Source of the DNA: an uncultured Chloroflexia bacterium
GTDB taxonomy: Bacteria; Chloroflexota; Anaerolineae; Anaerolineales; UBA4823
DNA length: 64,000 nucleotides
NCBI GenBank assembly: GCA_963705155.1
Contig: CAVPJC010000001.1
Location: 292,392-356,391 of the forward strand
Direction of reading: 5' to 3'
The first letter of the stretch is position 1; the number at the start of each line of letters is the position of its first letter. The notes under the pieces were generated by a model that saw only the letters and a program-made list of their open reading frames with translations, was not told where the DNA came from and ran no database searches. Below are positions 11,082 through 57,127 of this stretch, piece by piece. A program made the translations under genes and the position numbers.

Positions 11082-11168
11082 CGGTAATGATTCCTCACGC
11101 TGTGGTTCTCCCGGCATGCAATCAGCCGGTCTCCCATTTTATCATCCTGTGACGCGCAGAGGGCGGAC

Positions 11169-33162: not shown

Positions 33163-33269
33163 AAAAAAAAAACATGACGAAGGGCACTATTTTCATGTCA
33201 GGAAAACCTCTATGCTGATCTTGTCAAGGTCGTCCTCGCTCATTGCGCTGCATGCTGGAGGGAAAACTC

Positions 33270-36200
33270 ATGCATCACACGCCCGCCCGCCGCCTGACCC
33301 ACCTGATCCTGATCCTCTCGATGCTCCTGCCCGGACTGGCGCCCACGCCCACCCGGGCAGCTTCTTTGTACCAGGCCGGCGACGGCACGCCCACGCCCAG
33401 CGCCACACCGGAGGCGACTGAAACGCCCATCCCTTCCGAGACGCCAATTCCGGAAGTTACAGCGGAAGTCATCTCATCTACTCTGGAGATTCCATCACCG
33501 ACTGCCACACTGACGCCGACGTTGGATGTGACACCCACTCCCACGGCGACCGTGACACCTACGTTGCCCGCGCCAACCCCTATCATAACGACTACGAGCG
33601 TCCCAACTCCTGTGGAGACTGCGCCCGGTGGAGAAATCCTCGTCGCCGATCCTATGAGCCTGACCCTTAGTGCGGATGCTTCCCGTATCACTCCGGGCGG
33701 GGTGCTCAATCTATCCTGGCAGATCGACGGTTGGGCAGACAGTTATAAAGATGTATCTCTGGTCATCCAACCCCCTGCCGGTTTCAGCACTCTGGATGGC
33801 ACGCAGGGTGTTCTCGATGGACAGATCGGTCCCATTAGCCTTGCAGTGCTCTCTGCCGCTGATACGCTTCACTGGCAGATCCCGGCTGACCTGCCTGGTC
33901 CTTACACCCTGACCGCCATACTGAGCCAGGGCGGGAAAGCCATCACGACGCGCACAATTACCCTGCAGGAGACCGGCCTGACCCGCCTGCCTGTCGAAGG
34001 CGGAGTAGCCTCAGGATTAGGTGACCGAGTACGCGTCATTTTTCCCGCCCAGGTGGATGTCCAGATGCTGGATGTTCGCATCCGCCGACCGGTAGCTGCC
34101 TCCATGCCGCCCTACTCTCCCACCGGCGACCCTTTTGAGATCATCGCGCAGGCCAACGGCGAAGCCGTAGAAGCTTTTGACCCACCTCTCACCATCGAAG
34201 CGGCATACACCGGCTTGCGTCCCGCCCAGATCGCCTATTACGACCCTCTCCGGCAAGCCTGGCTGCCTCTCGAAACCGAATGGGATCAGGATGCCGGGGT
34301 GCTGCGCGCCCGGAGCAGCCACCTGACCGTCTTCGACACACCGGTCGTAGACTGGGAGACGGCCCGCACCCCCTCGGTGAAAGACTTCCAGGTCTCCCAG
34401 CAAACCGGGGCAGCCACGTACTCCTTCCCCATCTGGACCCCACCCGGCCTGGCCGGTTTGCAGCCAACATTGGCCCTGTCATACAACAGCCAGACCGCCG
34501 ACAGCGCCACCGCCCCCTACACTCAGGCTTCCTGGGTGGGCATGGGCTGGTCGCTGGATACCGGCTACATCCAGCGCAGCCAACACGCACCCGATCATGA
34601 TACCTACTCGCTGCTGGCGGGTGGGGTCAGCTCGAGCCTGCTGAAGGATAATACCGGCAAATACCACCTGGCCGACGAGAACTACTGGAAAGTGGAGTAC
34701 GATGCGACCAACGACAAATGGACGGCCTGGGATAAAAACGGAACGATCTACCGTTTCGGCAAGAACGCCAACAACACCTACGACGCCCGCGCCCGTTTCC
34801 CGATCTGCAACTCCAACGGAACCATTTCCATGCGAACCTGGAACTGGCCGCTGGTGGAAGTGGAGAACATCTTCAGCCAGAAACTGAGCTACACCTACGA
34901 TTTGACCGACACCAAACGCACCGATTTGTGTGACGATACTCGCACCACGCATCTGGCCGTCTACCCGGAGTATATCACCTACCCCAACGGCAAGTACCGG
35001 GTCAAATTCAATCTGGAAGAGCGCTACGACCACCGCCTGGAGTGGGAAGACAATAACGCTCAGACCTACTTCATGCACAAGCGCCTGAACACGATCGAGA
35101 TCCAACACAATGCGAGCGGAACCTGGCAGAGCGTACGCAGCTATGACCTGACTTACAACGCCGTCATCTTCCCCGGCTGGACATGGGATTACACCTACAA
35201 CGCCCGCACGTTCTCCCTGTCTGGCATCCAGGAAACCGGTCTGAACTCCGCCGCGCTGCCTGCCACCACCTTCAGCTATGCAGACGATCTGCACCTGACC
35301 CTGGCGGGCAATGGCTACGGCGGGAGCGTGGACTTCAGCTATGATCCCGTTTCGTGGTACGATCTCAGCAATGCTGAAGACCACATCCGCAAATATCATT
35401 TCGATCCAGGATCGGATGACTGCGATTCTTGGGACGGCGCCCAGTCTTCGTGTGACGCCCAGGAAGTCCTGCACATCGATGGCGAGGCGGTCCACCTTTT
35501 GCAGCCATCCGCGTTTGGGCCGGGCACAGCCTACAAGGTATCCGCCCGCATCTACAACGAGATCCAGACGGCGCAGAACGCCTCCATCGGTTTGCGCCAT
35601 GCCGCCAGCAGCAACAGCTACATCAGCGCATTGATCCCGGCTTACACATGGAAGGAATTCGAGGGGGTGGTGATCCTGCCTGCCGCTACGCAGTATGGCC
35701 GTGATTGGGAGTTTCGCCCGTTGATGGTGATGGCCTGCCCCAACTGCAAGGTGGAAGACTTCGAGATCACCTGGCTGCCCAGCCGCTACCGGGTAACGGC
35801 GCGCACCACCCACGACAGCGTCACCGGCGCCAGCCAGGTCTACCGCTACGAATACGACGACCCCGCCACCAACGACGCCGAGCACTCGGCCGCCGTGGCG
35901 GGCGAAGACCCGGAGGATGACGACGACCTGTATGATGATCCATATACGCAATACCGCGGCAATGCCATGAGCCGCGAGATTGGCCCGCTGGGAACGGACG
36001 GCACGCAGCGTGTGACCACCACCTGGTATGCCCAGGACGACGCCCGCAAGGGCCAGGCGCTGGGCACGCTGGTGGGCACGCAGTCCTACACCCAGACCTT
36101 CGAAGCCGACCAGTGGAGCGCCTACGCCAGTGACTGGAGCTACTGGAGCTCGAGGCAGATCGCACCGGCCTTCGAGCGCAAGAGCGGGGATGGCGCCCTT

Positions 36201-39200
36201 GTGGTCACCGAAGACTACGGCGAATGGAACAACACCGTGCACCGCAACGAGCACGCCGTCTCGGACGGAGAAGCCATCCTGGTGCAGTTCCAGATCACAG
36301 GCACCACCCCCGGCCAGTCCGAAGCGGTGCTGGCGCTGGAAGTGGGCGATTGGGGAGCCAGCTACCTGCGCTGGGGGGTGCAAGCCAACCTGGGCAGTGC
36401 ATTGTACGCCAGCTACTGCCTGGGAACGAGCTGCTACCACAACACTCTGGCCGATTTGAATTACTTCAAGAAAGGGGCCTGGTACAGCCTGCTGCTGGCG
36501 GTGGATGATGACCAGAAGTTCTTGATGCGCGTCTGGCCGCGCAGCGACCCCTCGGACGCTCGCGAGTACACCTTGAGCCACCCCAGCCTGCCGGGTAAGG
36601 ACTGGCGCTTTGCGGCCTACGCCAACCGCGCCCGGCTGCACCTGGACGAATACAGCGAAGGCAGGCTGTATTCACTCTCCACCACCGGCTATGACAGCGG
36701 CCTCGTCGCTCCCCTGGACGCCGCCTTCAGTGGCTTCCGGGATCTGGCGATCAACTGGACGCGCCCGGTGACCGCTTCGCAGATGAGCTTCAACGGCGAT
36801 GGAACCTGGATCGGCACGCGTACCATTTCTCTGTATGACCCCACCTACCAGAACGGAATCCAGTACGGCAACCAGACGGGTGTCGTCGAAGCCAGGTGGA
36901 GCGGCAGCGCCTGGCTGGATTACCGGGCTGTGCGCACCTGGTACTACCCCTACACCCAGAACGGCAAACACCTGGTGGGACTGCCGGCGGCGGTCAACCG
37001 CTACAAATGCGAGGACGCCGCCTGCGACTACGCCGATAGCGATCTGACCGCCTCGCAGTGGAACCTGTACGACGGGCAGAGCGGGTACTGGATCAGCCCG
37101 AGCAGCGGCAGGCTGACCGCCCAGCGCACAATGACCTGTTTTGCCGACGCCAACAAGGTATGTTATGCGACCTACCAGGCCAACCCAAGCTACGCCCTGT
37201 TCAGCGACCGTCAGTTCGAGTACGACGACTGGGGCAACCCGGTCAAGGTGAAAACCTCGCCGGACTACGGCTGGTTCCTGATGAGCTCGCCCTGGACCAG
37301 CCAACTGGCGAACACCAACCTGCGCGAAACCAGCTCGTGTTACGGCACAGCCAACCAACCCAGCGGCTGCACGGATGACGGCTACCACACCTACCGGCTG
37401 TGGGAGAAGAGCCCGCTGACGGCCAGCACAAACCAGACAGTCTACTGGTCGTATTCCGGTGCGCTGTGGCCCGGATCGAGCTACACCGGCTACAGCCTGG
37501 GCGTGCCGGTCAGCGAGACCGACCCCAACAGTGTAACCACCTGGGCCGAGTACGACGGCCTGGGACGCATGACCAAGGTGATCAAGCCCGGCGACAGCAG
37601 CGCCTACCCGACGCTGCAGGCGGTGTATCACGACGACTGGCAGCCCTTCCTGGTGGATGTGCACCAGCGCCTCACCGCGGGTACCGGCGCCACCTACAGC
37701 CAGCGCAAGCTCTACAACGGCCTGGGGCAGGTCATCCAGGTGCAGACGCCAGCGCGCCGAAGTCTCCGACAATGCCTGTTCCACGGATGCCGATACCAAC
37801 CCGGATGTCTGCGATCTGATCGTGGATACGGCTTACGACGGCTACGGGCAGGTCAATGCACAGACCGTACCCTACGCCCTGGACGACTGGTATTCGGGCA
37901 TGCCGGGGTATCCCACCCCCTCCGCGGGCAGAATTTCATCGGCAGCCCGCGCAACTACACCGCCACGGTCTACGACGTTCTGGGCCGCACGAACAGCGTG
38001 ACCGCCCCGGACGGGACCGAGCACGCTGACCGGCTACCCGGATACTTCTGCGGGCTATGCGGCTTACAACGAAGTGCGCCTGCAGGACGCCCGCGGCAAC
38101 ACCACGCGTACCATTTCGGACGTGTGGGGCCATGCCTATCAGGTCATCCCGCTCAATGGGAATAACGACGGCAGCCCGATCAACCCCACCGTGGCCTACA
38201 CCTACGATGCGCTCGACCGGCTTCTGACCGCCGCCCGCGGCGGAGCCACCGTCAGCCTGAGCTACGATTACGCCGGGCGGATGACGCAGCAGATCGACCC
38301 CGATCTGGGCACATGGGTTTATACTTATAACGCCATGGGAAACCCGACCAGCCGGAAAGACGCCCGTTGCAATGGCAGCAGTTGCGTGACGATCAACTAT
38401 GCCTACGACCACGCCAGCCGCCTGACGCAGAAGGGCTACAGCATCCCCACCGGGTTGAATGTGGCGGCAACCCCCGCGGCGACCTACTTCTACGACGCCG
38501 GGGGAGCGGCAGCCTACGCCATTGGCAGGCGCACCAGCATGACGGATGGCAGCGGCTCGACGACCTGGACGTATGACAGCCGCGGGCGCATGACCCAGGA
38601 GAGCAAGGTCATCAGTGGATCAGGCACCTTTGTGACCCAGTACACCTACAACTCCGCCGACCTGCCGGTAACGATGCGCTACCCGGCGAATGCCAGCGGT
38701 GGATTGGGTGAGACCGTCACCACCACCTACCTGCCGCAGAGACTGGTCAACAGCGTGATCGGCGCCAACACCTACGTCAAATCCAGCACCTACGACGCCG
38801 CCGGGCGGGTGGACGTGCGCCTGCTGGGCGACAGCAGCGGCACGGCAGTGGTCAAGACCGATTTCGATTACTTCGCCTGGAGCGACGTCAACGGCAACGG
38901 GCGGCTCAAACGGATCAAGTCGGAAGATGTGTCACCGTTGACCACGCTGCAAGACTTGCGCTATTACAACACATCCACCGGGGCATCCTTCTATGACGCC
39001 GTGGGCAACCTGACGCGCATCGACGACTACAAGAGCGGCGCGCCGCAAGGGCAGTATTTTGGTTACGACAACCTGTACCGTATCACCAGCGCCTACGCTT
39101 CGGGCGGGACTGGTGGAAACGGCGATTACACCACCGAGAGCTACAATTATGACGCCACAACCGGCAACCTCACCAGCAAGAGCACGGTGGGCAGCTACAG

Positions 39201-39992
39201 TTACGGAACCCAGTCCAGCGGCTGCCTGGAAGGGGCGCTGGCGGCCCACCCGCATGCCGTGGTGACCACAGTGGGAACGACCACGACCACCTACTGCTAT
39301 GACAGGAACGGCAATATGACCCGCCGCGACCCGAGCGGCACGCCAGTATACAACTTCCAATACAACGCCGAGAACCAGATGACGGGGGTGAGCGGCACGG
39401 CCACGGCATCGTTCACATATGATGGCGACGGCAACCGGGTGAAGAGCACGGCAGGGGAGTGACCACCGCCCACGTGGGGGCGTATTTCGAATGGACCGGC
39501 AGCACGGTTACAATGAAGAAGTATTACAGCGCGGGCGGGGCGCGCGTGGCAGTGCGCACGGGGGGCAGCACGCTGGCCTTCATCCTGACCGACCACCTGG
39601 GGAGCACCAGCATCACCACGACCAGCGCCGGTGTGTTGAGCACCGACAACCGCTACAAGGCCTGGGGGGAGTCAAGATACGCCAGCGGGACGCTGCCGAC
39701 GAAGTTCACCTACACCGGGCAGTATTCGAATGTTGCCGAGTTTGGGCTGATGTTTTATGGGGCACGCTGGTACGACAGTTCGCTATCCAGGTTCGCGCAA
39801 GCCGATATCATCGTACCGCTGCAAAACCAGGGCGTGCAGGCGTGGGATCATTATGCGGCGATGAATAATAATCCGGTCAGGTACAACGATCCGAGCGGGC
39901 ATATGGCGGTTTGTCCGGATTGCGGGGGTGGAGGGAATATTTCTGATCAAGAAAAGCTGGAAAGATCCGCTATGCTCGTGCGGCACAAGTAA
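33270..39992 (+). CDS. Secreted giant Rhs/YD-repeat polymorphic toxin (SpvB/TcB-like N-region, YD shell, RHS core); at least 5 frame breaks as assembled
   Basis: GGAGGG precedes ATG 33270. The signal peptide is MHHTPARRLTHLILILSMLLPGLAPTPTRAAS, followed by a Thr/Pro-rich linker. The SpvB-type motif is [29 protein letters not shown]...GMGWSL. Dozens of YD repeats follow (YTYDALDRL, YDYAGRM, YTYNAMGNP...). The RHS core is FTYTGQYSNVAEFGLMFYGARWYDSSLSRFAQAD...NNPVRYNDPSGH. The pieces are ORFs 33243.., 37657.., 38074.. and 39459... Confidence 0.85.
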
Positions 39993-40048
39993 ATCCTCAA
40001 TCGTCTTTAATTAATACCGATGAAATTGCAGAAAAAGCTGGAACTGGT

Positions 40049-40447
40049 TTGGATATGACAAGTATAGCTCAAGGAGCTTTTGCATTAAAAGTTACGGATG
40101 CAATATTACCGGGTCCAGTTTTTGGTGTCATTATCAATTCAGGCATCCAAATACTACAAGACAGTGACCAAAATTTCAATCCGGATGAGGCCGTGTTACG
40201 GGTTGCTACCGCAGCTGCTGAAGGTGTTGCTTTGGATCTGGTGTCTACTTATTTTGGAGATGTTGGTGGTGCAGTTGGTATCGGTTTGGGGGCTGCTGTA
40301 GCACCAGGACCCGTTGCACCAATCATTGGGTTTGGGACTGGCTACTCAGTTGGTGCTGTGTCGAGTTATTTCAATACGAGAAACGTAATTGAAAATGTCA
40401 ACGAAACATATATTTTTCCAGCAATACATCAAATAACTGATAAGTAA
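40049..40447 (+). CDS. Gly/Ala-rich (glycine-zipper-like) protein; probably the frameshifted C-terminal toxin tip of the Rhs protein
   Basis: Its frame is open back to about 39943 and overlaps the Rhs frame across an A-run. It contains GDVGGAVGIGLGAAVAPGPVAPIIGFGTGYSVGAV. GC is low. Confidence 0.5.
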   Translation: MDMTSIAQGAFALKVTDAILPGPVFGVIINSGIQILQDSDQNFNPDEAVLRVATAAAEGVALDLVSTYFGDVGGAVGIGLGAAVAPGPVAPIIGFGTGYSVGAVSSYFNTRNVIENVNETYIFPAIHQITDK

Positions 40448-40514
40448 ATATTCAAGATAGTTTCGATTCCTATGCTCTGAGAATGCGATTTCAACAGGAA
40501 CGGAGATTGCACCA

Positions 40515-41195
40515 ATGGGTCATCTAATTATTTGCGCTCTAGCATCAGTTGCGCCTGGGTTGGGTTTCTGGTTACTTGGGGAGAGACGTCGGGGCACAAT
40601 CATCGCTAGTATTTTTGCTTTCTTTCTCTTTGGAAATTGGATTTTTGGCATTTTGGGATTTGGCTCAAGTACCAAAATATTACTTATTCTGCCTGTTGGT
40701 TTTTGGATTGTCCAACTATTGATTACTTTGGAAAGAATATATATGCGTTACCAACAAATAAAACATCCGGAAAAAGCAGCTGTTATTCCCAATAAAACCA
40801 ATATTGCAAATGACTTGACCAATTATCACCCATCCGTTCAGGCGGCATATCAAGTTGTTATAGCTCAACCAGGAATTGATCGTCAACTACTCCTAGCAGC
40901 AATATTTGGTATTCAAATATCTAGCCGAAAGGCATGGGTATATATTCCATACCGCATATTGTATTTGGGTCTGACACATGAATTTACAATAATAGTTGAA
41001 GCGGACAAACTTGGTACGCCGATGTTGATTGAACGCTTGGAAAACAGTAAAATTATAAATAAAAGTTATATCCAAGGTTCAATGAATGACCAATTAAAGC
41101 TTGAATTTAGAGATGGTGAAATTATCAACTTATTAGTAACAATACAACAACGTGCGGAGACCGCAGTGTTCGCATCTATGTTCATAGATGCATAA
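40515..41195 (+). CDS. Hypothetical membrane protein, candidate Rhs immunity protein
   Basis: 226 aa with 3 N-terminal TM helices and a soluble C-terminal domain. GC is very low (about 37%). It lies immediately downstream of the toxin tip. Confidence 0.45.
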   Translation: MGHLIICALASVAPGLGFWLLGERRRGTIIASIFAFFLFGNWIFGILGFGSSTKILLILPVGFWIVQLLITLERIYMRYQQIKHPEKAAVIPNKTNIANDLTNYHPSVQAAYQVVIAQPGIDRQLLLAAIFGIQISSRKAWVYIPYRILYLGLTHEFTIIVEADKLGTPMLIERLENSKIINKSYIQGSMNDQLKLEFRDGEIINLLVTIQQRAETAVFASMFIDA

Positions 41196-41201
41196 AAATT
41201 T

Positions 41202-41669
41202 ATGTCTATTCTCATCCTGTCCCGGCCAAACTTAACCAGTGCTCTGACCGTTACATCTGCTACTAATGGCAACTACAGCGAGAGCTACGATTACGACGCC
41301 GCCAGCGGCAACCCCTCCCAGAAAGCGGGTGGAAATTACACCTACGATATGGTCAAAAAACATGCCGTGCGCCGCGTAAACGCCAGCGGCGGCGCCTCCA
41401 AAACCATCCAGGTGCGGGCGTATTCCACGCCGTGCAGCGATGGCGTGCGCGCCACGATGGAGCTGCGCGTCAATGGCAGCCTGGTAACCACCTGGAGCAA
41501 CGTGGCTGTGGCCTGGACAACCCACAGCGCCAACACTCCCCTGTCGGGTAAAGACCAGATCGAAGTGGTGTTTACCAACGACTGCTACAACGGCGGTTAT
41601 GACCGCAACCAGTTTTCACACGAATGTCAGGCAGGGTATGGTTCCGGGGGATTGGAGAGCGGGTTGTGA
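41202..41669 (+). CDS. Orphan Rhs-repeat fragment joined to a carbohydrate-binding-module-like domain
   Basis: NGNYSESYDYDAASGNPSQKAGGNYTYDMVKKHAV parallels GNGDYTTESYNYDATTGNLTSKSTVGSYSYG...HPHAV of the main gene (about 39120-39260). Next comes IQVRAYS...MELRVNGSLVTTW...IEVVFTNDCYNGGYDRN (CBM-like). The 3' end is unclear. Confidence 0.45.
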   Translation: MSILILSRPNLTSALTVTSATNGNYSESYDYDAASGNPSQKAGGNYTYDMVKKHAVRRVNASGGASKTIQVRAYSTPCSDGVRATMELRVNGSLVTTWSNVAVAWTTHSANTPLSGKDQIEVVFTNDCYNGGYDRNQFSHECQAGYGSGGLESGL

Positions 41670-41806
41670 TTTGGCTCGGGAAACCGGTATGAAATATTTG
41701 TTGGGTTGGTGGGCAGGCTTTTCCTGCGTATGGCCGTCGTTTTTTGCCCACCAATCCAACCTACGACTATTGACTCTAGACTGATGATACGTTATCCTAT
41801 ACACAA

Positions 41807-43186
41807 ATGTATAGAATGAGTGAACTTAACCAATTGAACCGCAAGATATTTCACACCAACGACCTGGCTGTTTTGTGGAAGATAACCAATCGGCACAATC
41901 TGTATATGACCATCACCCGCTACATTGACAGGGGGGTGCTGTTTCCAATCTATAAAGGCATGTACGCTACGGTTTCCCCGGCCTCCCTGAACCCCCTGGA
42001 ACTGGGCCAGGCTGTTATTCACCGGTACACCTACCTGACGACCGAATCGGTCCTCGCGCAGGCGGGGATTATCTCTCAATTGGTCTACGATTATACTTTT
42101 GTCGCCGATCTGTCCAAGCGCGTCTCAGTCGGAACCTGGTCTTTTCGGTATCGCAAGCTCAAAGATATTTATCTCCATAATCCTGCTGGTATCGTCGATC
42201 ACAGTGGAGTTTTTATCGCTACTGCAGAACGAGCCGTGGCGGATTTGCTTTATTTCAACCCTAAATATCACTTTGATGTTCCGGAAAGCATCGATTTCGA
42301 AAAGGTCAAGTTAATCCAACAAGAAGTCGGATATCCTCCTGTTAAACTGTTTAATGTACAATGCCATGGTATAAGCCGTTTTTCGATGTTGGTAGGGAAC
42401 GCTGATCGCTTGACAACAACCCACAGAAAACAGCTCCTCCTGCAGCGCCTGGATGAGATCGGCGCCTCCCTGGCCCGCTCCTCCGGCGCCCTGGCCCTGA
42501 TCGGCCTGGGTTCGGTGGGCCTGGAACAGGAGCGCCTGGACGCATACTCCGATCTCGACTTCTTCGTCATCGTCGAGACCGGCTGCAAGGCCGCCTTCCT
42601 GGACGACCTGTCCTGGCTGAGCGCCATCCACCCGGTCGCCTACCGTTTCAAGAATACCGCCGATGGCTACAAGCTGCTCTTCGCCGACGATATCTTCTGC
42701 GAATTTGCCATTTTTGAGCCGCACGAGCTGCAGGCCGTGCCCTTTGCCGCAGGCCGCATCGTCTGGAAGGCGCCCGGCGTCAGCGATGACATCGGCATCC
42801 CCGCCCGGCCTCCCGGGGCGCAAGCACCCGCCGCGTTGGAATGGCTGCTGGGGGAAGCCCTCACCTGCCTGTACGTCGGTATGGGGCGTTACCGGCGCGG
42901 TGAAAAACTCTCGGCCCAGCGTTTCATCCAGCATTACGCCGTCGACCGCCTGCTGGAGTTATCCAGCCGGGTGGAAAGCGAAGCGCCCGCCTTGCGGGAC
43001 GCGTTTGCCCCGGAGCGGCGCTACGAGCAGCGCTTTCCGCAAACCGCCCGCCTGCTGCCGCAGTTCGTCCAGGGCTACGCCGCCATCCCCCAATCGGCCC
43101 TGGCGATCCTCGATTTCCTCGACCGGCACTTTGAGGTGGATGCCGCCCTCAAAACCAAAATCCGCCAACTGTGCCTGCCAGAGTAA
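41807..43186 (+). CDS. AbiEi-like antitoxin/wHTH domain fused in frame to a nucleotidyltransferase (ANT(6)/KNTase-like) domain
   Basis: The N-terminus is IFHTNDLAVLWKITNRHNLYMTITRYIDRGVLFPIYKGMYA (AbiEi-type). The C-terminal half is ALIGLGSVGLEQERLDAYSDLDFFVIVE (the GS..x..D.D NTase motif) plus a helical domain. There is no stop between the two halves. GC jumps at about 42380-42420. Confidence 0.6.
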   Translation: MYRMSELNQLNRKIFHTNDLAVLWKITNRHNLYMTITRYIDRGVLFPIYKGMYATVSPASLNPLELGQAVIHRYTYLTTESVLAQAGIISQLVYDYTFVADLSKRVSVGTWSFRYRKLKDIYLHNPAGIVDHSGVFIATAERAVADLLYFNPKYHFDVPESIDFEKVKLIQQEVGYPPVKLFNVQCHGISRFSMLVGNADRLTTTHRKQLLLQRLDEIGASLARSSGALALIGLGSVGLEQERLDAYSDLDFFVIVETGCKAAFLDDLSWLSAIHPVAYRFKNTADGYKLLFADDIFCEFAIFEPHELQAVPFAAGRIVWKAPGVSDDIGIPARPPGAQAPAALEWLLGEALTCLYVGMGRYRRGEKLSAQRFIQHYAVDRLLELSSRVESEAPALRDAFAPERRYEQRFPQTARLLPQFVQGYAAIPQSALAILDFLDRHFEVDAALKTKIRQLCLPE

Positions 43187-43229
43187 CGATTTCTGCTGCC
43201 CATGCGTGCGCCGCCAGGGGGCTCAGGGC

Positions 43230-45092
43230 TCAACCGCCACCAGCACCGCCCTGCACCACCCTGCGCCAGCGGTATGCGCCGTCCGCCTCGTCATAGCCCT
43301 GGCAGGTGATCAGCGTGACCCACGCCCGTTCCTCGTGCCGCAGCACCTTGAGCTGGTCGGGAGAGACCATGCTGTTCTCGCGCACCTCGTAGATATAGCG
43401 CTGCCCCCAGGCATGGATGATCACCCGGTCGCCCCATTGCAAAGTTTGCAGGTTGGCAAACGGCCCCGGGCTGCCATCCGCCAGGGTGGAATGCCCGGCC
43501 AGCCCGCTGTTTCCCTCCCAGGTGGGATAGGCGGTCCCTTCCAGGTATCCGGCTTCGCCCCCCAGCCAGCGCACATCCCAGCCGCTGCCGCTCTTTGGCA
43601 CCCCCAGGATGGCCATCTTTTGGCCCAGCGCAGGGATTTCCAGGCTCATTTCATCCTGCTGAGAATAGGCCAGGGCAGCGGGCTGCGCCGGCAGAGGGGT
43701 GTGCACATCGGGCGCAAAACCCGTGGCCGGCAGCTGCACCGCCCCCAGCAGGTTTAAAAACGCCTCACCGGCGCGTGTTTTGGCTTCGAGGTTGCGCCCG
43801 CTGGCCCCGGCGACAAACCAGTCGCGCGAAAGGGCCACCGACTTGCCAAACAGGTCATTCTCGCCTGCCGGGTCGGTGACGGCGCGGGTCTGCATGTTCC
43901 ACGCGCCTTTGCTCTTTTTGAAAATATACACCGCCCCGGCGCCATTGTTACCCGCCTGAACGGCCCCATCGGCCCCGACCACTACCGTGTCGCCGTAGAT
44001 ATCCACCGCCTGGCCGAGCCGCTCAAAAACCTGGGCGCCCTGCGCCGCCAGCATGGCTTCCTCCACCCATTCGTCCCCCCGGTCGCTGAATACGTAGGCT
44101 GCCCCCGCGCTGGTGACCTGCCCCCCGCCCAGGTCGGGATCGGCATGATACGCCCCCACCACGATCGTCTTTCCATGGATTGCCAGTGAATTGCCAAAAG
44201 CATCCCCGGCTCGACCGTTTTCCGCTTCCAGCCGGGCTTCGCTTTGCCATGTTTTTCCGCTGCGCCGGAACACCCACACCTTCCCCGGCCCGCTCTCGCC
44301 CGTCAGGTTGAACTGCGGCGCGCCCACGCCGATCAAATCGCCCTGTACCGCCACCGACGTGCCAAAATAATCGCCCAGCCACGGGTCAGGCGGCAGAAGT
44401 CGGGCCTGCTGGCTCCAGTTTTTTCCGCTGCTGCGGTAAAAAACATACGCTGCGCCCACGTCGATCAGGGTACCCATGTCCTTCGTCTCGGCTGCCACCA
44501 CCACCGTGGATTTGTCAACCGCCACCCCTGAGCCAAATGAGTCGTCTTCTGCCGGGTCGGCGGCAGTGAGAATGGCCTGCTGCACCCACTTCCCGCTGCT
44601 GCGGGCGAAAACGTAGGCCGCGCCGGCGTCATCCAACCACCCGTCCTCCTGATCCTCATCCGCCAGGTCGACGCCGGTGGCGCCCACCACGATGGTATTG
44701 CCGCTGATTCCCACGGATACGCCAAAGGTATCGCCTGCCGCGGCGTCATCAGCCGTCAACCTGGCTTCCAGAACCCAGGTATTGCTGCTGCGCACATAAA
44801 CATAGGCTGCCCCGGCATTGCTCACCGCTCCCCCGCCCAGGTCGGGATCGGCGTTGCGCGCCCCGATGACCGCCGTGTTGCCGTCGATCGCCACCGCGCT
44901 GCCGAACTCATCCAGGCTTTTTCCGTCGGGCGCAGCCAGCGACCACTGCTGCACGACCCCCAGGGTTGGGACCGCGCTGCCCGACGCCTGCCAGCCAGAG
45001 GCCAGCCCCGCCTGCGCCGCAGGCAGCAGCGCCAGCAGCAGCAAAACAGATATGGATAGGTATCGTTTAACCAGATTCAGGGTTGCAGCCAT
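43230..45092 (-). CDS. Secreted seven-bladed FG-GAP-like beta-propeller fused to a C-terminal sortase domain
   Basis: GGAGGTG precedes ATG 45092, and a signal peptide follows. Seven repeats of the form FG.SVA..G.T.VVGA ... GAAYVF are present. LPATG is at 43719-43733. The sortase motifs are LEIPALG, GNSGLAGHS, TLITC (Cys codon 43302-43304) and YRWRRVV. Confidence 0.8.
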   Translation of the reverse strand: MAATLNLVKRYLSISVLLLLALLPAAQAGLASGWQASGSAVPTLGVVQQWSLAAPDGKSLDEFGSAVAIDGNTAVIGARNADPDLGGGAVSNAGAAYVYVRSSNTWVLEARLTADDAAAGDTFGVSVGISGNTIVVGATGVDLADEDQEDGWLDDAGAAYVFARSSGKWVQQAILTAADPAEDDSFGSGVAVDKSTVVVAAETKDMGTLIDVGAAYVFYRSSGKNWSQQARLLPPDPWLGDYFGTSVAVQGDLIGVGAPQFNLTGESGPGKVWVFRRSGKTWQSEARLEAENGRAGDAFGNSLAIHGKTIVVGAYHADPDLGGGQVTSAGAAYVFSDRGDEWVEEAMLAAQGAQVFERLGQAVDIYGDTVVVGADGAVQAGNNGAGAVYIFKKSKGAWNMQTRAVTDPAGENDLFGKSVALSRDWFVAGASGRNLEAKTRAGEAFLNLLGAVQLPATGFAPDVHTPLPAQPAALAYSQQDEMSLEIPALGQKMAILGVPKSGSGWDVRWLGGEAGYLEGTAYPTWEGNSGLAGHSTLADGSPGPFANLQTLQWGDRVIIHAWGQRYIYEVRENSMVSPDQLKVLRHEERAWVTLITCQGYDEADGAYRWRRVVQGGAGGG

Positions 45093-45112
45093 TTTACTCA
45101 CCTCCACCTAGC

Positions 45113-46049
45113 TCACCGGGTTGCCAGCGCCAGAAAAACATCTTCCAGCGTGGGTTCCACCTGTTCAACACGTACAGCCTGCAGGCCCGCCTCGTTCAGG
45201 CGATCCTCCAAAACCTTTGCGGTTACATCTGCCGGAGCGATGGCCCGCAGATGGTCACCGGTCAGTCCGGCGCGGAAAACACACGGACAACTTTCCAGAG
45301 CGTTCAAGGCTACCAACAGCGGCGGTTCCTGCTCATGATCCGCCTCGCCAACAAACACATCCCATGCCAGGCCCGGCAGCGCCGTTTCCTTCAAAGCCGA
45401 GGGTGTATCCATCGCCAGCAGCCGGCCATCGCGCATGATGCCCACCCGCCCGCAGTATTCGGCCTCATCCATGTAATGCGTGGTCACCAGGGCTGTCACG
45501 CCCTGCCCCACCAGCGTCATAGATCAGATCCCAGAAGGCCCGCCGCGCCGTCGGGTCGACGCCGCTGGTGGGCTCATCCAGAAACAGCAGGCGCGGCCGG
45601 TGCACAATCGCCGTCCCCAGCGCCAGTCGCTGCCGCCAGCCTGCCGACAGGCTGCCCACCAGCTCCTTTTGCAGGGCGTTTAGACCCACCAGGTCCAGCA
45701 CCTCGTCCAGCCGCTGGCGGCGTGTCTCACCGTAAACACCGGCATAGAACGCCAGGTTTTCTCCCACGGTCAGATCATGGTACAGGGCGAACTTCTGCGA
45801 CATGTACCCCACCTGGGTGCGGATGCGCTCCGCATCCCGCACCACATCGTACCCCAGCACGCTCGCCTGCCCTGCGGTGGGGCGCAGCAGCCCCAGCAGC
45901 ATGCGGATGGTGGTGGTCTTGCCCGAGCCGTTCGGCCCCAGGTAACCCACCACCTCGCCCTGCCCCATCTGAAACGTGACGTGATCCACGGCGACGAATT
46001 CACCGAAGTTTCGCGTCAGGTCCTTGGTGATGATGACATCTTCAGGCAT
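45113..46049 (-). CDS. ABC transporter ATP-binding protein (one frame break near 45510)
   Basis: MPEDVIITKDLTRNFG..., GPNGSGKTT, LSAGWRQRL and LLFLDEP, then ...VTALVTTHYMDEAEYC in ORF 45113..45520. Confidence 0.8.
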
Positions 46050-47012
46050 TGTTGTTTTCCAGCAAATCGATAAAAACATCTTCCAGCTGGGCCGGAACCA
46101 GGCGCAGTTGGATGATTTCGCCGCCCGCCTCGGGGATGCGCTGGCTCCAGCCGCTCCATCACCGCCTGGGCGCAGCCTGTGCGCACATGCAAATGGATCC
46201 GGTCGCCAAACATGTGCGCATCCTGCACATCTTCATCCTGGCTGGGCCAGGCCGGCGCAGCAGCGCCAGCGGGCTGGCCGCGCAGCTCCAGGATGCGCCC
46301 ATCCAGGCGGTGTCCGCAGACCCGACGGCGTGCCTTCCACCAGCAGCCTGCCGTTCTGCATGAACCCCACCCGCCGGCAGCGGGCCGCTTCGTCCATATA
46401 GGGGGTGCTCACCAGCACCGCCACGCTCTCTTCGCCTTTCCGGCGCCGCCAGGCGGATGATGAGCTGCCAGAAATCCTGGCGTGTCACCGGATCCACGCC
46501 GGTGGTGGGCTCGTCCAGCAGCAGCACGCGCGGGCGGTGCACCAGCGCGGCCGCCAGGCCCAGCTTTTGCTTCATCCCGCCGGAGAGCTTCCCCGCCCGG
46601 CGGTCGATAAAGGCGTCCAGCCCCACAAAGCGCAGGATCTCCATGCAGCGCGGCCGCCACTCGGCGGCGGGCAAGGCCGCGCACCTCGGCAAAGAAGCGG
46701 ATATTCTCCATGACGGTCAGGTCCTCGTACAATGAAAAGCGCTGCGGCAGGTAGCCAATCTGAGCGCGGGCCTGCTCGGTCTGGCGCAGTACATCGTACC
46801 CGCCGATCTCAATCTGCCGGAGCCGGCCGCCGTGCCGGCCGGTCGGGCCGCAGCGCGCCGCACAGCAGCCGCAGGGTGGTGGTCTTGCCGGCGCCATCCG
46901 GCCCGACCAGGCCGTAAATTTCGCCGGACGCCACCTGCAGGCTCAGATCCACCACAGCCTGTGTGGCGCCAAAGGATTTATTCAGTGAAACAGCGTTGAT
47001 CAGGCTGTTCAT
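46042..47012 (-). pseudogene. ABC transporter ATP-binding protein, 5 or more frame breaks as assembled
   Basis: The pieces sit in 5 frames: [15 protein letters not shown]...GPDGAGKTT; [20 protein letters not shown]; [33 protein letters not shown]; [14 protein letters not shown]; and [14 protein letters not shown]. The reconstructed stop is at 46042-46044, overlapping the next start. Confidence 0.75.
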
Positions 47013-47019
47013 AAGCGGG

Positions 47020-48374
47020 TTATTTGAAAATCACATCCACCGGCATGCCCGGTTTCAACTTGCCTTCCGGGTTTGTAATTGCCAGTTGGATGGCATATAC
47101 GGTGGTGCGCCGGCCTTCCTCCGTTTGCACATTGCGCGGTGTGAACTCCGCCTGGTCGGCGATACGCGCCACCACAGCTGAGAATATCTCGCCTGGGAAC
47201 AAATCGATCTCTCACCTCCACCGCCTGGCCCAGGCTGACCTCACCGTAGCGGTCTTCGGGCACGTAAACCGTGATGGTCAGGTCATCCAGGCGCGCCAGC
47301 GTGAGCAGCGGCGCCCCGGCACAGCCACCTCTCCTGGCTCCACAGAGCGGGTGAGCACCACCCCCTCCACCGGGGCCTTGATCGTCAGCTTGCCGATCTG
47401 TGTCTCGATCACCTGCAGCGGCAGAACGGGCTACCTCCACCTGCGCCTGGGCGGCTGCCAGCTGCTCCGGGCCTGGCTCGGCCTGTGCTGCCGCCAGGCT
47501 GGCTTCGGCTATCTATCAGGCGCGCCTGCGCCAGGGCCAGCGCATCCGGGTCGATGCCCGTCCTGCAGCTCTGCGTAGCTGCCGCTGCGAATCTGCCAGC
47601 CTGCGCCTCCGCCAGGGCCACATCGGCGTTTAGCCAGGGACAGCTCATACTTGTTGGCTGTGCCCAACCAGGTTGTTATATCGTTCCACCACGGCATCGT
47701 ACTGCTTTTGCGCTGCCGGCTAGCTTGCGCCTGCAGAACGGCGCGGGTCAGGTTGCTTTGATCTTTGTTTTCATATGGGCTCAAAATCTTCCTGCGCCTT
47801 TTCCAGCTTATCCTGGGCAATCACCACCGAGGCCCAGGCCGCATCGATATCCGCCGGGTTGGCCTGGGTACTGACATTATCCAGGTACTGCTGCGATTTA
47901 TCGCGGGCTTTGTCAATCGAGGCGATCGTTTGCTAGGGTCTGGGCTTCAGCCAGACCTGGGCTGATCGTACAGCGCCTGCAGGGCCTGCTGTGCATTGGT
48001 CAGCTCCATCTCGGCAGAAGCCATCGCCAGGGCGCGCTGCTCGTCGGAAAGCCCTTTGGCAGCCAGCTCGTAGTTGGCCTGCGCCTGGCGCCAGAGCAGC
48101 CTGGGCCTGGGCCAGCTGCGCCTGCAGCAAGGCGCCATCGAAACGCACCAGCACATCACCGGCCTGCACTGCATCGCCTTCTTGAGCCAGCACTTCGAGC
48201 ACATGCCCCGCCAGCTCGGGGGCTACCAACACCTGGATGGCTTCGATGGTGCCCGAAGCTGCAAGTTCACCAGACACGGCATCCGTGCGGTTGTTGTTCA
48301 GATACCACCAGCCGGCCGCAGCCAGGGCAATCAGTAAAATGACGGGTGCAATTCTTCGTCGGGTTGGGATGCAT
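47020..48374 (-). pseudogene. HlyD-family periplasmic adaptor (membrane-fusion) protein, multiple frame breaks as assembled
   Basis: GGAGGA precedes ATG 48374. By hand translation, a TM anchor (RRIAPVILLIALAAAGWWYL) sits in a shifted frame. Other pieces are GTIEAIQVLVAPELAGHVLEVLAQEGDAVQAGDVLVRFD and the C-terminus FTPRNVQTEEGRRTTVYAIQLAI...GMPVDVIF. Confidence 0.75.
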
Positions 48375-48426
48375 AAACTTCCTCCGTTCTACATCGTCAA
48401 TGGTGAGCGGGTTGTCGCAGCCTGTC

Positions 48427-49562
48427 TCAATCCAGGCGCTTTCGGAAACGCAGCGACGCCAGGGTCATGATACTCAGGCCAAATATCGCCAGGGCAATAA
48501 TCTCATTGCGCAGTGCGGCCGATGCCAACGCCTTTCAGCATCAGCGTGCGGATGATCACCAGGTAGTAGCGCAGCGGCATCAGATACGAAATCCACTGCA
48601 GCAATTTGGGCATGGCTTCGATGGGAAAGAAGAAACCGGACAGGAACATGCTGGGCAGCAGAGTCATCCACACCGTCAGCATGGCTTCCTGCTGGGTGTT
48701 GGCGATGGTGGAGGCCAGCAGACCGATGCCCAGGCTGGAGAGCAGGAACAGACCCGATAGCGCCAGGATCAGCCACAAATCGCTGCGGATGGGCACCTTG
48801 AACCACCAGGAACCCACCGCCAGCACCTCCAGCGTGTTCAAGAAGGCCAGGATCACGTAAGGCAGCAATTTTCCAACCACCAATTCCCAGGGGCGGATCG
48901 GTGTGACGATCAACTGCTCGATCGTGCCACGCTCCGCTCGCGCACAATCGCCGTGGCGGTCAGGATGGAAGTGAGGGCAAACAGGATCATGCCGATCACA
49001 CCCGGGATCATGAAATAGGCGCTCACCAGGTCGGGGTTGTACCACACCTGGGTGCGCACCTCGACGGGGGGCTGCACCGCCGTGGTTTGGCCGCGCCGCG
49101 GCCATGCGCTCCACCAGGATGCGTGTGGCATGCTGCTGGCCGATAAACTGCGCCGCCGAAAGCGCTGTGGATGCCACGGTGGGATCGCTGCCATCCAGCA
49201 CAAAAGCCACCTGGGCCACCTCACCGGCCTGCAGGCGGCTGCCGTAATCCGGCGGGATGATCATCCCGGCGCGTGCTTTGCCGCTATCGATCAGGTCGCG
49301 CAGCTCATCCTCGGAATCCACATCGTAGGCGATGCTGAAGTAGTCGGCGGCGCGGTAGGCATCCAGCAAAGCGCGCGCTTCCGGGCTGCGGTCCTGGTTA
49401 TAGACTGCCAGGGGCACGTTGCGCACATCGTTGGTGGCAGCAGTACCCCAGCAGCACCAGCTGCATCACCGGGATCACCAGCACCAGGATCAGCGTGCGC
49501 GGATCGCGCAGGATCTGGATGAATTCTTTGCGTACCAGTGAAACCAGACGGGAATTGATCAT
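48427..49562 (-). pseudogene. ABC-2-type efflux permease, multiple frame breaks as assembled
   Basis: MINSRLVSLVRKEFIQILRDPRTLILVLVIPVMQLVLLGY (hand translation from ATG 49562), then ATNDVRNVPLAVYNQD..., then the ABC-2 membrane domain ...IANTQQEAMLTVWMTLLPSMFLSGFFFPIEAMPKLLQWISYLMPLRYY. The start overlaps the tetR stop (ATGA). Confidence 0.75.
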
Positions 49563-50183
49563 GTTACCTCCGGCGCGGCAGACCCATTTTTTATAATACC
49601 GTACAGATAAATATCCACAAACGTATCCAGAGCCCGGTCGTGCATCTCTCGGGGGAACTGGTTTCCCACCAGCAGCTCGGTCATCACATAGGAAAAGAAT
49701 AAACCCACAAAAGTGCGCACCAGCATCATGGCCGGGATCGGGCGCAGTTCGTCCCTGGAGTCGACAAACCGCTGCACAAAGTCTAAAATCTGGGGGAAAA
49801 CGATCTGGAATAGAGCCGGGACATGCTGCCCATTAAACTCAACCACCTCAATAAACATCAGGTTGAGCAGATCGGTGCGCTTCCCCAGGCCTTCCACCAA
49901 CCGCCGGGCGGCGTCACGCACGAACTCATCCATGCTGCCGCCCTCAGCCGCGTTAATCAGCGGCAGCACCTCAAGATAGGGGTGCCGTTCCAATAATACG
50001 GTTTTGAAGATCTTCGTCTTTGCCAGAAAAATGGTTATAAATACTGCCCAGGGCAATGCCGGTCTCCTGGGCAATCTGGCGCATGGAGGTGCCGTGATAG
50101 CCTTTCAGCATAAACAGGTTATACGCCGCCTGGAGGATCTCCGTGCGGGTGCGCTCACCGCGTGTGATCGTTTCTTCAGACAT
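49559..50183 (-). CDS. TetR/AcrR-family transcriptional regulator (one frame break near 50012)
   Basis: The N-terminal HTH is RTRTEILQAAYNLFMLKGYHGTSMRQIAQETGIALGSIYNHF (ORF 49971..50183). The ligand domain is ORF 49559..50074. Removing one A at about 50012 gives ...GKDEIFKTVLLERHPY. Confidence 0.8.
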
Positions 50184-55193: not shown

Positions 55194-57127
55194 TTAGATG
55201 TTGCGAAATTCTCCGTCCACCACATCTTCACCTTCGGGACCAGCCCCAGGGCCGCCCGCCGGGCCGCCGGTCTGACCGCCGCTGCCGCCCGCGGCATCAG
55301 GGCCGGGAGTGCCTTGCTGCTGGTATGCGGCTGCACCCACCTGCTGCACCACCTGGTTCAGCGCCTCGGTTTCGCGGCGGATGCTCTCAACATCCTCGCT
55401 GTTCAAGACACCCCGCACCTTGCCCGCATGTTCTTCCACTTTGCTTTTCAGGTCTGCCGGAACTTTATCACCCAGGTCGCGCAGCACCTTTTCGCTGGTG
55501 TAGACAGCATTGTCGGCGCCGTTGCGGGCTTCAATCAGCTCTTTGCGCTTGCGGTCGTCATCTGCATGCGCTTCGGCTTCTTTGCGCATCCGTTCCACCT
55601 CGGAATCGGACAGGCCCGAAGAAGCCGTGATGGTGATGTGCTGGCTGCGGTTCGTGGCTTTATCCAGGGCGGTCACTTTCAGGATGCCGTTGGCGTCGAT
55701 ATCGAAGGTCACCTCAATTTGCGGGATGCCGCGCATCGCCGGGGGAATGCCATCCAGGATAAAGCGGCCCAACGACTTGTTGTCGGCTGCCATCGGGCGT
55801 TCGCCCTGCAGCACGTGGATCTCCACCTGGGGTTGGCTGTCGGATGCCGTCGAGAAGATCTGGCTCTTGCGGGTGGGAATGGTGGTGTTGCGCTCAATCA
55901 TCGAGCTGGCAACGCCGCCCAGGGTCTCAACTGAAAGAGACAGCGGGGTCACATCCAGCAGCAAGATGTCCTTTACCTCGCCGCCCAGCACACCTGCCTG
56001 GATCGCCGCGCCCACCGCCACGACCTCATCGGGGTTCACGCCTTTGTGGGGCTCTTTATTGAACAACTTGCGCACCGCCTCCTGAACCGCCGGCATGCGC
56101 GTCATTCCACCCACCAGCACCACCTCATCGATCTTGGAAGCCTCCAGACCGGCGTCTTTCAACGCCTGGCGCACCGGGCTCAAGGATCGCTCGATCAGGT
56201 CGGTGGTCAACTGCTCCAGCCGGGCACGCGTCAGGGTCATCACCAGGTGCTTGGGGCCGCTGGCATCCGCTGTGATGTAGGGCAGGTTGATCTCGGTTTG
56301 CATCATGGTGGAAAGCTCGATCTTGGCCTTCTCGCCGGCCTCTTTCAAACGCTGCAGCGCCTGGCGGTCGTTGCGCAGGTCGATGCCATTCTCGCGTTTG
56401 AATTCGTCGGCAATAAAGTCGATAATGCGTTGGTCAAAGTCATCGCCGCCCAGGAAGGTATCGCCGCTGGTGGAGCGCACCTGGAAGACACCATCGCCCA
56501 CATCCAGGATGGAGATATCAAAGGTGCCGCCGCCCAGATCGTAAACCGCGATGACCTCGTCTTTCTTCTTGTCCAGCCCGTACGCCAGGGATGATGCAGT
56601 CGGCTCATTGATGATGCGCAGCACTTCCAGCCCAGCAATCTTGCCGGCGTCTTTGGTGGCGTTGCGCTGAGCATCATTGAAATACGCCGGCACAGTGATG
56701 ACCGCCTGGGTCACCGTTTCGCCCAGGTAGGCCTCAGCGTCTGCCTTGAGCTTGCCCAGGATCATGGCTGAAACTTCCGGAGGGGAGTATTCCTTGCCAT
56801 CCAGGATCACCCGCATATCGCCATTGGGCGCCTGGGCCACTTTGTAGGGTACGCGCGTCAGAGCTTTTTGCACTTCAGCATCATTGAATTTGCGCCCCAT
56901 AAAACGTTTAATCGAAGAAACAGTGTTTTCCGGGTTTACAACACTCTGGTTACGGGCGACGCGGCCGATCAGGCGCTCGCGGTTCTTATTCACCGCCACC
57001 ACCGACGGCACCAGGCGTTCGCCCTCCGCCGATGAGATGACGACCGGCTCGCCGCCTTCCATTACAGCCACCACCGAGTTTGTGGTTCCCAGGTCGAATT
57101 CCTATAATTTTTGCCATTTATTGCCTC
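55194..57127 (-). CDS. dnaK: Molecular chaperone DnaK (frame break in codon ~8, near 57105)
   Basis: ORF 55194..57074 is a full Hsp70 body. Upstream, ATG 57127 gives MAKIIGI, then the frame slips. Removing one T from GGAATTCGAC gives [22 protein letters not shown]. Confidence 0.95.

Follow-up and report, generated by a model that had tools for sequence, protein, structure and literature searches.

The window analysed here, the whole 64,000-nucleotide stretch of contig CAVPJC010000001.1 from an uncultured Chloroflexia bacterium, encodes on its minus strand a secreted surface or adhesin-type protein. In this protein a β-propeller is followed by a C-terminal module consisting of an LPATG motif, a tether of approx. 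25 residues, and a class-C-like sortase domain without a membrane anchor. The module (LPxTG plus sortase, approx. 170 residues) caps more than 1,000 different Anaerolineae surface proteins. It is probably a self-contained C-terminal sorting module, which cuts its own LPxTG between threonine and glycine and transfers the passenger to an acceptor in the cell envelope. As such, it seems to represent a hitherto undescribed route by which surface proteins are processed or attached, with known chemistry placed in a new architecture: enzyme and substrate share one chain and are used as a modular sorting domain. Directly established are the architecture, its modularity, the conservation of the motif and its fixed spacing, the intact catalytic residues, the covariation between motif and enzyme, and the lack of a transmembrane segment. 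An earlier note on this DNA, made from the letters alone, had placed a signal peptide, seven FG-GAP blades, LPATG at 43719-43733, and a sortase in one polypeptide; Pfam, AlphaFold2, and reading of the sequence confirm this. The features of the gene are as follows.

43223-45092, minus strand: complete gene after frame correction (signal peptide, FG-GAP propeller, LPATG linker, and sortase)
45098-45105, minus strand: Shine-Dalgarno sequence GGAGGTGA, 5 nucleotides upstream of the ATG at 45092, read from the sequence
45009-45092, minus strand: Sec-type signal peptide, residues 1-28, with a predicted cleavage site between AQA and G
43737-44966, minus strand: seven-bladed FG-GAP_2 β-propeller, residues 43-452 (Pfam, AlphaFold2, Foldseek)
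43710-43733, minus strand: LPATGFAP, residues 454-461, the LPxTG recognition motif and the conserved FAP
43650-43709, minus strand: conserved linker of approx. 20 residues from the motif to strand β1, consensus xxxTxLPxQPxxxxY, defined by conservation
43223-43649, minus strand: sortase catalytic domain, residue 482 to the C-terminus (Pfam, PDB profile search, model, Foldseek)
43491-43493, minus strand: catalytic His534 (LAGH), invariant, aligned with SrtA H120
43341-43352, minus strand: L581-K582-V583-L584 of the β6/β7 loop, in which L581, V583, and L584 covary with motif residue 1
43302-43304, minus strand: catalytic Cys597 (TLITC), invariant, aligned with SrtA C184
43263-43265, minus strand: catalytic Arg610, invariant, aligned with SrtA R197
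43249-43251, minus strand: GGG run with one extra G, a frameshift found by comparison with family C-termini

Domain architecture

The N-terminal part of the mature protein is a propeller. Pfam recognizes seven FG-GAP_2 repeats (E 3e-82), and AlphaFold2, supplied with 57 homologues, models residues 43-452 as a confident propeller whose predicted local distance difference test score (pLDDT) is mostly above 90. In Foldseek, the top hits of this model are the seven-bladed propellers of integrin alpha (E ~1e-18). With its seven repeats and confident fold, the domain belongs to the FG-GAP or integrin-alpha-type propellers. The propeller-sortase architecture is common to more than 90 protein clusters. 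In other phyla, FG-GAP_2 propellers end in a type IX secretion system sorting domain (T9SS; P0111, Chitinophagaceae), in FlgD_ig, or in a dockerin (P0103); thus, the module occupies the position of sorting or anchoring domains.

The C-terminal part is a sortase by sequence and by fold. Pfam Sortase (PF04203) matches residues 484-614 with an E-value of 1.4e-19 and 70.5 bits, compared with a cutoff of 26.6, and TIGR01076 gives 39.5 bits (cutoff 39.35). These scores, the residues of the catalytic triad, and an eight-stranded barrel place the domain in the sortase superfamily (PF04203, MEROPS C60). No transmembrane segment was found on either side of it. In particular, the catalytic Cys is followed by just 23 residues in the window protein, against 24-27 in most relatives, and a hydrophobic segment is lacking there. 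The earlier note was also right that LPATG lacks a hydrophobic helix and charged tail behind it: approx. 167 residues, which include a soluble sortase domain, separate the motif from the end.

Conservation of the LPxTG motif

LPATG corresponds to residues 454-458 (nucleotides 43719-43733), and the bond between T457 and G458 is presumed to be the scissile one. No second LPxTG is present in the window among all six-frame open reading frames (ORFs) of 60 amino acids or more. In the FG-GAP subfamily, L454, P455, G458, F459, and P461 are invariant, and the junction LPxTGF(A/P)P is kept in nearly all propeller-sortase clusters, down to 45% identity. The earlier note had made its proposal of self-processing depend on the conservation of LPATG in orthologues; the motif is conserved both across this range and in 334 non-redundant modules on unrelated passengers. 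Among these 334 modules, the first motif residue is L (84%), A (6%), I (5%), V (2%), or M (1%), the second is P in 100%, and the T and G positions are kept in 96% and 100%, respectively. The x position is free (A 32%, E 18%, D 11%, S 10%, G 8%, and others), and since it stands between conserved L, P, T, and G, the motif shows the signature of LPXTG recognition. The residues that follow LPxTG are F in 99%, A in 86%, and P in 96%. PxTG is missing from only 4 of 331 modules. Moreover, the Pro precedes the catalytic Cys by 141-143 residues in 96% of modules; P455 and C597 of the window protein are 142 residues apart.

A module shared by unrelated surface proteins

The spread of the module was determined by an exhaustive phmmer search with residues 445-620 (linker plus sortase) as the query and clustering at 50% identity. 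The search returned 4,473 clusters at E<1e-3, 1,317 of them with E<1e-30. Each of the 150 top-ranking matches opens between query positions 1 and 12, LPATG having its L at position 10. In these 150 hits, the match stops within approx. 10 residues of the query end, almost always near the C-terminus of the host protein, and the hosts range from 225 to 4,130 amino acids. The window protein conforms to the definition of the proposed family: a signal peptide opens the protein, [LAIVM]PxTGF(A)P lies 141-143 residues before the Cys, the chain stops shortly after β8, and the C-terminus, once corrected (see below), equals the consensus.

Gene neighbourhoods were surveyed in 81 loci, comprising 80 from a genome scan and a syntenic relative of the window gene, L081; the scan patterns were built from a six-sequence alignment and reach close relatives only. 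The module terminates a large ORF in 75 of the 81 loci, many of these ORFs being longer than 2,000 amino acids, and the complete ones begin with a signal peptide. Passenger domains include DUF11/CLIPPER, Chlam_PMP, β-helix, Big, cadherin, SdrD_B, SpaA, CARDB, and other propellers. It has been reported that CLIPPER, DUF7933, and SpaA are isopeptide-stabilised stalk domains in fibrillar adhesins (PMC12617251). Hundreds of unrelated passengers bear the module at their C-terminus, and a single genome carries several copies on different passengers. The genome-scan loci come almost exclusively from Anaerolineae or Anaerolineales, among them the cultured Ornatilinea apprima P3M-1. The fusion of propeller and sortase on which the earlier note centred is thus present in the window protein, but the description is too narrow, as the propeller is one of many interchangeable passengers. 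The same reason speaks against the note's alternative of a propeller that serves to recruit substrates or to bind the wall.

Some copies of the module deserve separate mention. Short stand-alone sortases bearing the motif (170-300 amino acids) were considered and rejected: they are mostly fragments on contigs of approx. 1 kb, and two inspected on long contigs directly follow adhesin ORFs and are the products of split genes. At L084 (7995-8003), an in-frame TAA stands six codons before LPQTGF, between a 1,357-amino-acid CLIPPER/SdrD_B adhesin ORF and the sortase module; this stop may reflect an error in sequencing, or the gene may truly be split or read through there. Two adhesin plus sortase-module genes lie approx. 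3 kb apart on one contig at L083 (231-2205 and 5310-8516), and the gene caller splits both of them. L010 (CAWBME010000007.1) carries a different module gene, with the motif APETGF. L032 (JALVYU010000033.1) places a module gene on a 2.4-kb contig that was binned as a Desulfurococcales archaeon and is most likely mis-binned Chloroflexota DNA. A shadow ORF runs antisense to the module in 55 of the 81 loci, e.g., at L004 (5800-6333, minus strand). As a gene family, it was rejected, being a product of high GC content and conservation of the sense strand.

Covariation of the motif with the specificity loop

Coupling between the motif and the sortase domain was assessed by mutual information with average product correction in 331 modules (effective number 262). 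The top partner of L454 is L581, with a score of 0.150 that ranks 11th of 13,530 pairs and lies above the 99.9th percentile; the next partners are L584 (0.125) and V583 (0.098). An hhalign alignment to S. aureus SrtA, for which a sequence identical to 1ija/2kid was used, pairs VSPDQLKVLRHE with VKPTDVGVLDEQ and so places L581 on V166, V583 on V168, and L584 on L169. In SrtA, V166, V168, and L169 of the closed β6-β7 loop bind LPXTG, and laboratory-evolved variants that accept APxTG or XPKTG have substitutions of V168 and L169 (reviewed in PMC9126251). As motif residue 1 covaries with positions aligned to LPXTG-binding residues of SrtA, each sortase domain appears, judging from the sequences, to be tuned to its own motif. 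Covariation is also seen just upstream of the motif, where V452 and Q453 covary with A532. The latter equals SrtA A118 in the ungapped alignment of LAGH with IAGH, and we take A118 to be part of the substrate groove.

The pairing can be read directly from the residues involved. When the motif starts with L, residue 584 is L in 212 of 280 modules and F in 26 of 280, and residue 583 is mostly V or A. Motifs starting with A are accompanied by F at 584 in 16 of 19 modules and by I at 583 in 16 of 19; for those starting with I, the prevailing residues are F at 584 (13 of 18) and V at 583 (11 of 18). The association has an odds ratio of 17.9 and is seen repeatedly in separate clusters, with contrasts inside clusters. 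After stratification by relatedness, the Cochran-Mantel-Haenszel test gives a p-value of 9e-5 for F or M at 584. In a scan of 289 column states, F at 584 ranks first and L at 584 third, and both I and V at 583 are among the top ten. Such a pairing of motif and loop is not expected from one shared housekeeping sortase. The earlier note had proposed that the junction between the domains holds the enzyme's own recognition motif and that self-processing there releases or attaches the propeller. This proposal gains support from these alignments, and the covariation goes beyond what was claimed there.

Relationship to known sortase classes

By profile and fold together, the closest relatives of the domain are the lidded class C sortases (24rr, 3e-16; 2xwg; SrtC1 of group B Streptococcus, GBS; C. 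diphtheriae SrtA), and the top Foldseek hits of the module model are class C sortases. Membership in a known class was nevertheless rejected because every NCBIfam class model remains under its cutoff. The best score is that of the class C model NF033745 (47.8 bits versus 160), and class E (46.8 versus 160), SrtD (38.3 versus 140), class D (37 versus 165), class GN (30.5 versus 158.25), and class F (28.3 versus 166) also fall short; for class A, no NCBIfam model matched. The hallmarks of class C are lacking as well. In place of the lid DP[WFY], the aligned segment reads LPxTGFAP, there is no hydrophobic segment that could serve as a membrane anchor, and no conserved pilin-type gene is found in the neighbourhood. 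When hidden Markov models (HMMs) are aligned, GFAP of the module is placed opposite the segment GLDPF of Ebp SrtC, approx. 30 residues before β1, with moderate alignment confidence at this point; we regard GLDPF as the lid motif of class C, DP[FWY].

When the module is modelled on its own with AlphaFold2, from 40 diverse sequences, the mean confidence is high (pLDDT 93.5, predicted template modelling score 0.90), and the motif segment forms an ordered coil (pLDDT 86-94), which disagrees with the full-length model (see below).

Proposed mechanism and alternatives

In the favoured model, the protein would be exported by the Sec pathway and its signal peptide removed. The tether would then set the motif into the substrate groove of the sortase domain of the same protein. 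Cys597 would attack the T457-G458 bond, which would leave the propeller thioester-linked to the enzyme and give the enzyme a new N-terminus, GFAP. An amine of the envelope, most plausibly one of peptidoglycan or another wall polymer, would resolve the thioester. The passenger would thus become covalently attached, and the sortase domain would be discarded after a single turnover. Cleavage, the reaction within one chain (as opposed to between sister molecules), and the identity of the acceptor are what we infer in this scheme. For the lineage as a whole, it is an evenly balanced proposition that covalent surface display in Anaerolineae works in this way. Each surface protein would carry a single-use sortase as its C-terminal sorting domain, which would cleave its own LPxTG between T and G and ligate the passenger to the envelope. 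This domain would replace the membrane sortase and hydrophobic-tail signal of Firmicutes and Actinobacteria, with motif and loop diversifying together (LPxTG, APxTG, IPxTG).

Several points weigh against this model. Residues past the presumed scissile bond (GFAP, T, LPxQP, and Y) are conserved as strongly as the motif itself, unlike in ordinary sortase substrates, so that the segment could instead stay bound for good. AlphaFold2, given the full-length protein, leaves the motif and linker undocked, with a pLDDT of 31-41. The covariation rests on 51 non-L motifs and, after relatedness is controlled for, on only 5 informative strata; the best single stratified p-value (0.0023, for F at 584) would fail correction for 289 tests. 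It is not obvious how a sortase that lacks a membrane anchor would reach lipid II. Furthermore, the survey covered gene neighbourhoods only, which leaves room for a separate housekeeping sortase that could be encoded elsewhere in the genome. Finally, if the frameshift in the last strand were real, the window copy would be inactive.

The domain might instead act between molecules, on the motif of a sister copy (or on its own), with an acceptor amine, either a Lys or the N-terminus, on another copy, and thereby build covalent polymers or fibres, every subunit supplying a class-C-like polymerase of its own. The closest relatives of the domain, the class C sortases, are pilin polymerases, and the pilin and adhesin stalk domains SpaA, SdrD_B, and CLIPPER occur among the passengers; covariation, for its part, cannot separate a reaction within one chain from a reaction between identical molecules. 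However, the FG-GAP subfamily has neither an invariant Lys nor a pilin-like YPK motif, mature N-termini are not conserved, and both the rigid 142-residue spacing and the module-only model favour a same-chain reaction. Assembly of this kind appears unlikely.

An alternative that we consider rather improbable is that LPxTGFAP is a pseudo-substrate, i.e., a permanent, uncleaved autoinhibitory lid comparable to DP[WFY] of class C sortases. The protein would then be a secreted sortase with substrates other than itself, targeted by its N-terminal domains. Lidded class C sortases are nearest in sequence and fold, the segment taken as the class C lid is where the motif aligns, conservation runs past the scissile bond, and the covariation is compatible with any substrate-like binding, whether or not cleavage follows. 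Known class C lids, however, avoid the scissile T-G pair, which in the module is conserved (T 96%, G 100%) beside intact His, Cys, and Arg. Passengers of up to 4,130 amino acids with adhesin stalk repeats are implausible enzyme-targeting domains, the more so as several copies per genome carry different passengers. Moreover, no separate LPxTG-tailed substrates were found in the 889 kb of loci.

It is very unlikely that a different enzyme, a membrane-anchored housekeeping sortase, cuts the LPxTG and that the fused domain serves retention, folding, or a second step. The motif is canonical, and such a sortase could exist outside the surveyed neighbourhoods; against this, variants of motif residue 1 track the specificity loop of the attached domain, and the hydrophobic segment and basic tail of classical membrane retention are absent. 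That the motif is a chance occurrence or a functionless pseudogene relic, as the frameshift in the last strand and the many frame switches of the region might suggest, is next to impossible and is refuted at the family level, given that 334 non-redundant modules keep the motif, with constant spacing to the catalytic Cys, that frame switches across all neighbouring genes point to assembly error, and that the rest of the ORF is intact with 62% identity to a relative.

Gene model and frameshift

As assembled, the ORF spans 43230-45107 on the minus strand in the ORF listing. The true start is the ATG at 45092 and not the GTG at 45107, which falls within the Shine-Dalgarno sequence GGAGGTGA. Consequently, the gap to the upstream stop (45113-45115) is 20 nucleotides, where the earlier note, counting from the GTG, had given 5; likewise, the catalytic residue that it called C602 is C597 when numbered from the ATG. 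The signal peptide, MAATLNLVKRYLSISVLLLLALLPAAQA before the G of the mature protein, lacks a lipobox Cys as read from the sequence. It is modelled as a helix over residues 2-21 in the full-length AlphaFold2 model, and the N-termini of complete relatives resemble it.

At the other end, the extra G in the run at 43249-43251 turns the last β-strand, VVQAVLVAVEP, into VVQGGAGGG, and the assembled C-terminus (RRVVQGGAGGG and stop) is a product of this frameshift. Deletion of one G from 43249-43251 restores an end that reads RRVVQAVLVAVEP, with the stop at 43223-43225, in agreement with the family consensus. The remaining 1.87-kb ORF is unbroken and aligns with one relative in a single continuous alignment at 62% identity. 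Since approx. 10 frame switches are needed in the five upstream genes to match the syntenic relative, the frameshift is most likely technical, and the change in the last strand of the window copy is probably an assembly error.

Genomic context

Upstream of the sortase gene lies an operon of transport genes:

45113-50183, minus strand: TetR, ABC-2 permease, HlyD-like adaptor, and two ABC ATPases (tblastn against the syntenic L081)

All of these genes are broken, with approx. 10 frame switches in 5 kb relative to L081. As the switches are spread over all neighbouring genes, the assembly is indel-rich and probably derived from long reads, and ORF calls in the window call for caution. The operon is present in L081 and absent beside the homologue in L082; its adjacency is thus probably only local gene order, and the efflux operon was rejected as a functional partner. 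ABC ATPases lie near 11 of the 81 module loci, a frequency judged to be background.

All-against-all clustering of the ORFs of the 81 loci revealed no conserved neighbour gene family, the second-largest "family" being the antisense shadow ORF. In the 889 kb of loci and in the window, i.e., in gene neighbourhoods only, there is no convincing classical substrate with LPxTG, transmembrane segment, and tail, and no other type of sortase. These negative results fit a self-sufficient module.

Other parts of the window were also noted. On the plus strand, positions 33243-39462 hold a 1,640-amino-acid ORF with a weak SpvB match followed by a 462-amino-acid ORF with RHS repeats, which together are probably one frameshifted Rhs/YD-repeat polymorphic-toxin gene. 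Just downstream of it lies a low-GC island (40001-43186; 44.7% GC versus about 60% elsewhere) with a DUF6677-like ORF (40515-41195), a CBM60-like ORF (41202-41669), and an unassigned 459-amino-acid ORF (41807-43186) that converges on the sortase gene. The island may be foreign DNA or a toxin-tip/immunity region. Housekeeping genes, such as a homocysteine S-methyltransferase fused to MTHFR (9201-11117, minus strand) and DnaK/Hsp70 (55194-57074, minus strand), fit a chromosomal rather than a mobile-element context.

Significance

Full-text literature searches, whose coverage excludes subscription journals, returned no description of this architecture. There is no curated family model for the module either: Pfam offers only the generic Sortase family, and NCBIfam release 20 contains no specific model. 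Source databases label module proteins "sortase family protein" or "hypothetical", and such entries would have to be read anew, as adhesins or surface proteins that end in a self-sorting tail. Surveys limited to motifs in the last 50 residues (e.g., PMC12617251) would miss them. If the model is correct, a new sortase architecture is present on more than 1,000 protein clusters of a major environmental lineage that has been little studied and whose cell envelope remains under debate. The natural pairing of motif residue 1 with residues 583 and 584 mirrors the directed evolution of SrtA (PMC9126251) and yields testable specificity rules. The family would then offer, ready-made in nature, a collection of compact, orthogonal tags for self-cleavage or self-ligation, and it would hint that the lid of class C sortases descends from a bound substrate.

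Comparison with known systems

The module most closely resembles the class C sortases (A. oris SrtC-1, 2xwg; GBS SrtC1; E. faecalis Ebp SrtC, 24rr), with which it shares a barrel of eight strands, the catalytic His, TLxTC, and Arg, and, approx. 30 residues before β1, an extended segment, which in the module would likewise cover the active site. Unlike them, it has a true LPxTG in place of the DP[WFY] lid and no N- or C-terminal membrane anchor. Class C sortases are separate enzymes encoded in pilin operons, whereas the module sits at the C-terminus of its presumed substrate.

With LPXTG sorting by S. aureus SrtA, the module has in common the free x position, a covarying loop that aligns with V166, V168, and L169, and cargo typical of sortases. 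Of the classical LPXTG signal, it has the pentapeptide; the position within about 50 residues of the C-terminus, the hydrophobic helix, and the basic tail are missing. In contrast to the SrtA system, enzyme and substrate are one polypeptide, and each enzyme presumably turns over once.

The C-terminal domain of the T9SS and PorU of Bacteroidota, which carry out sortase-like cleavage and attachment, provide a parallel in that a cleavable C-terminal domain is found on highly diverse surface proteins. The folds are unrelated, and the T9SS domain is a signal for a separate transpeptidase, whereas the module is the transpeptidase itself. Sortase and its own LPXTG have been combined in one chain in engineered self-cleaving tags (SrtA-LPXTG-target). 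These are laboratory constructs with the order enzyme-motif-target; the module is natural, has the order passenger-motif-enzyme, and forms a large, diversified family. In Hedgehog and other Hint proteins, the self-processing catalytic domain likewise stands at the C-terminal end; it captures the new C-terminus of the passenger as a (thio)ester, passes it to a nucleophile, and is then discarded. The module would follow the same logic with an unrelated fold and chemistry, so that the likeness is one of analogy only.

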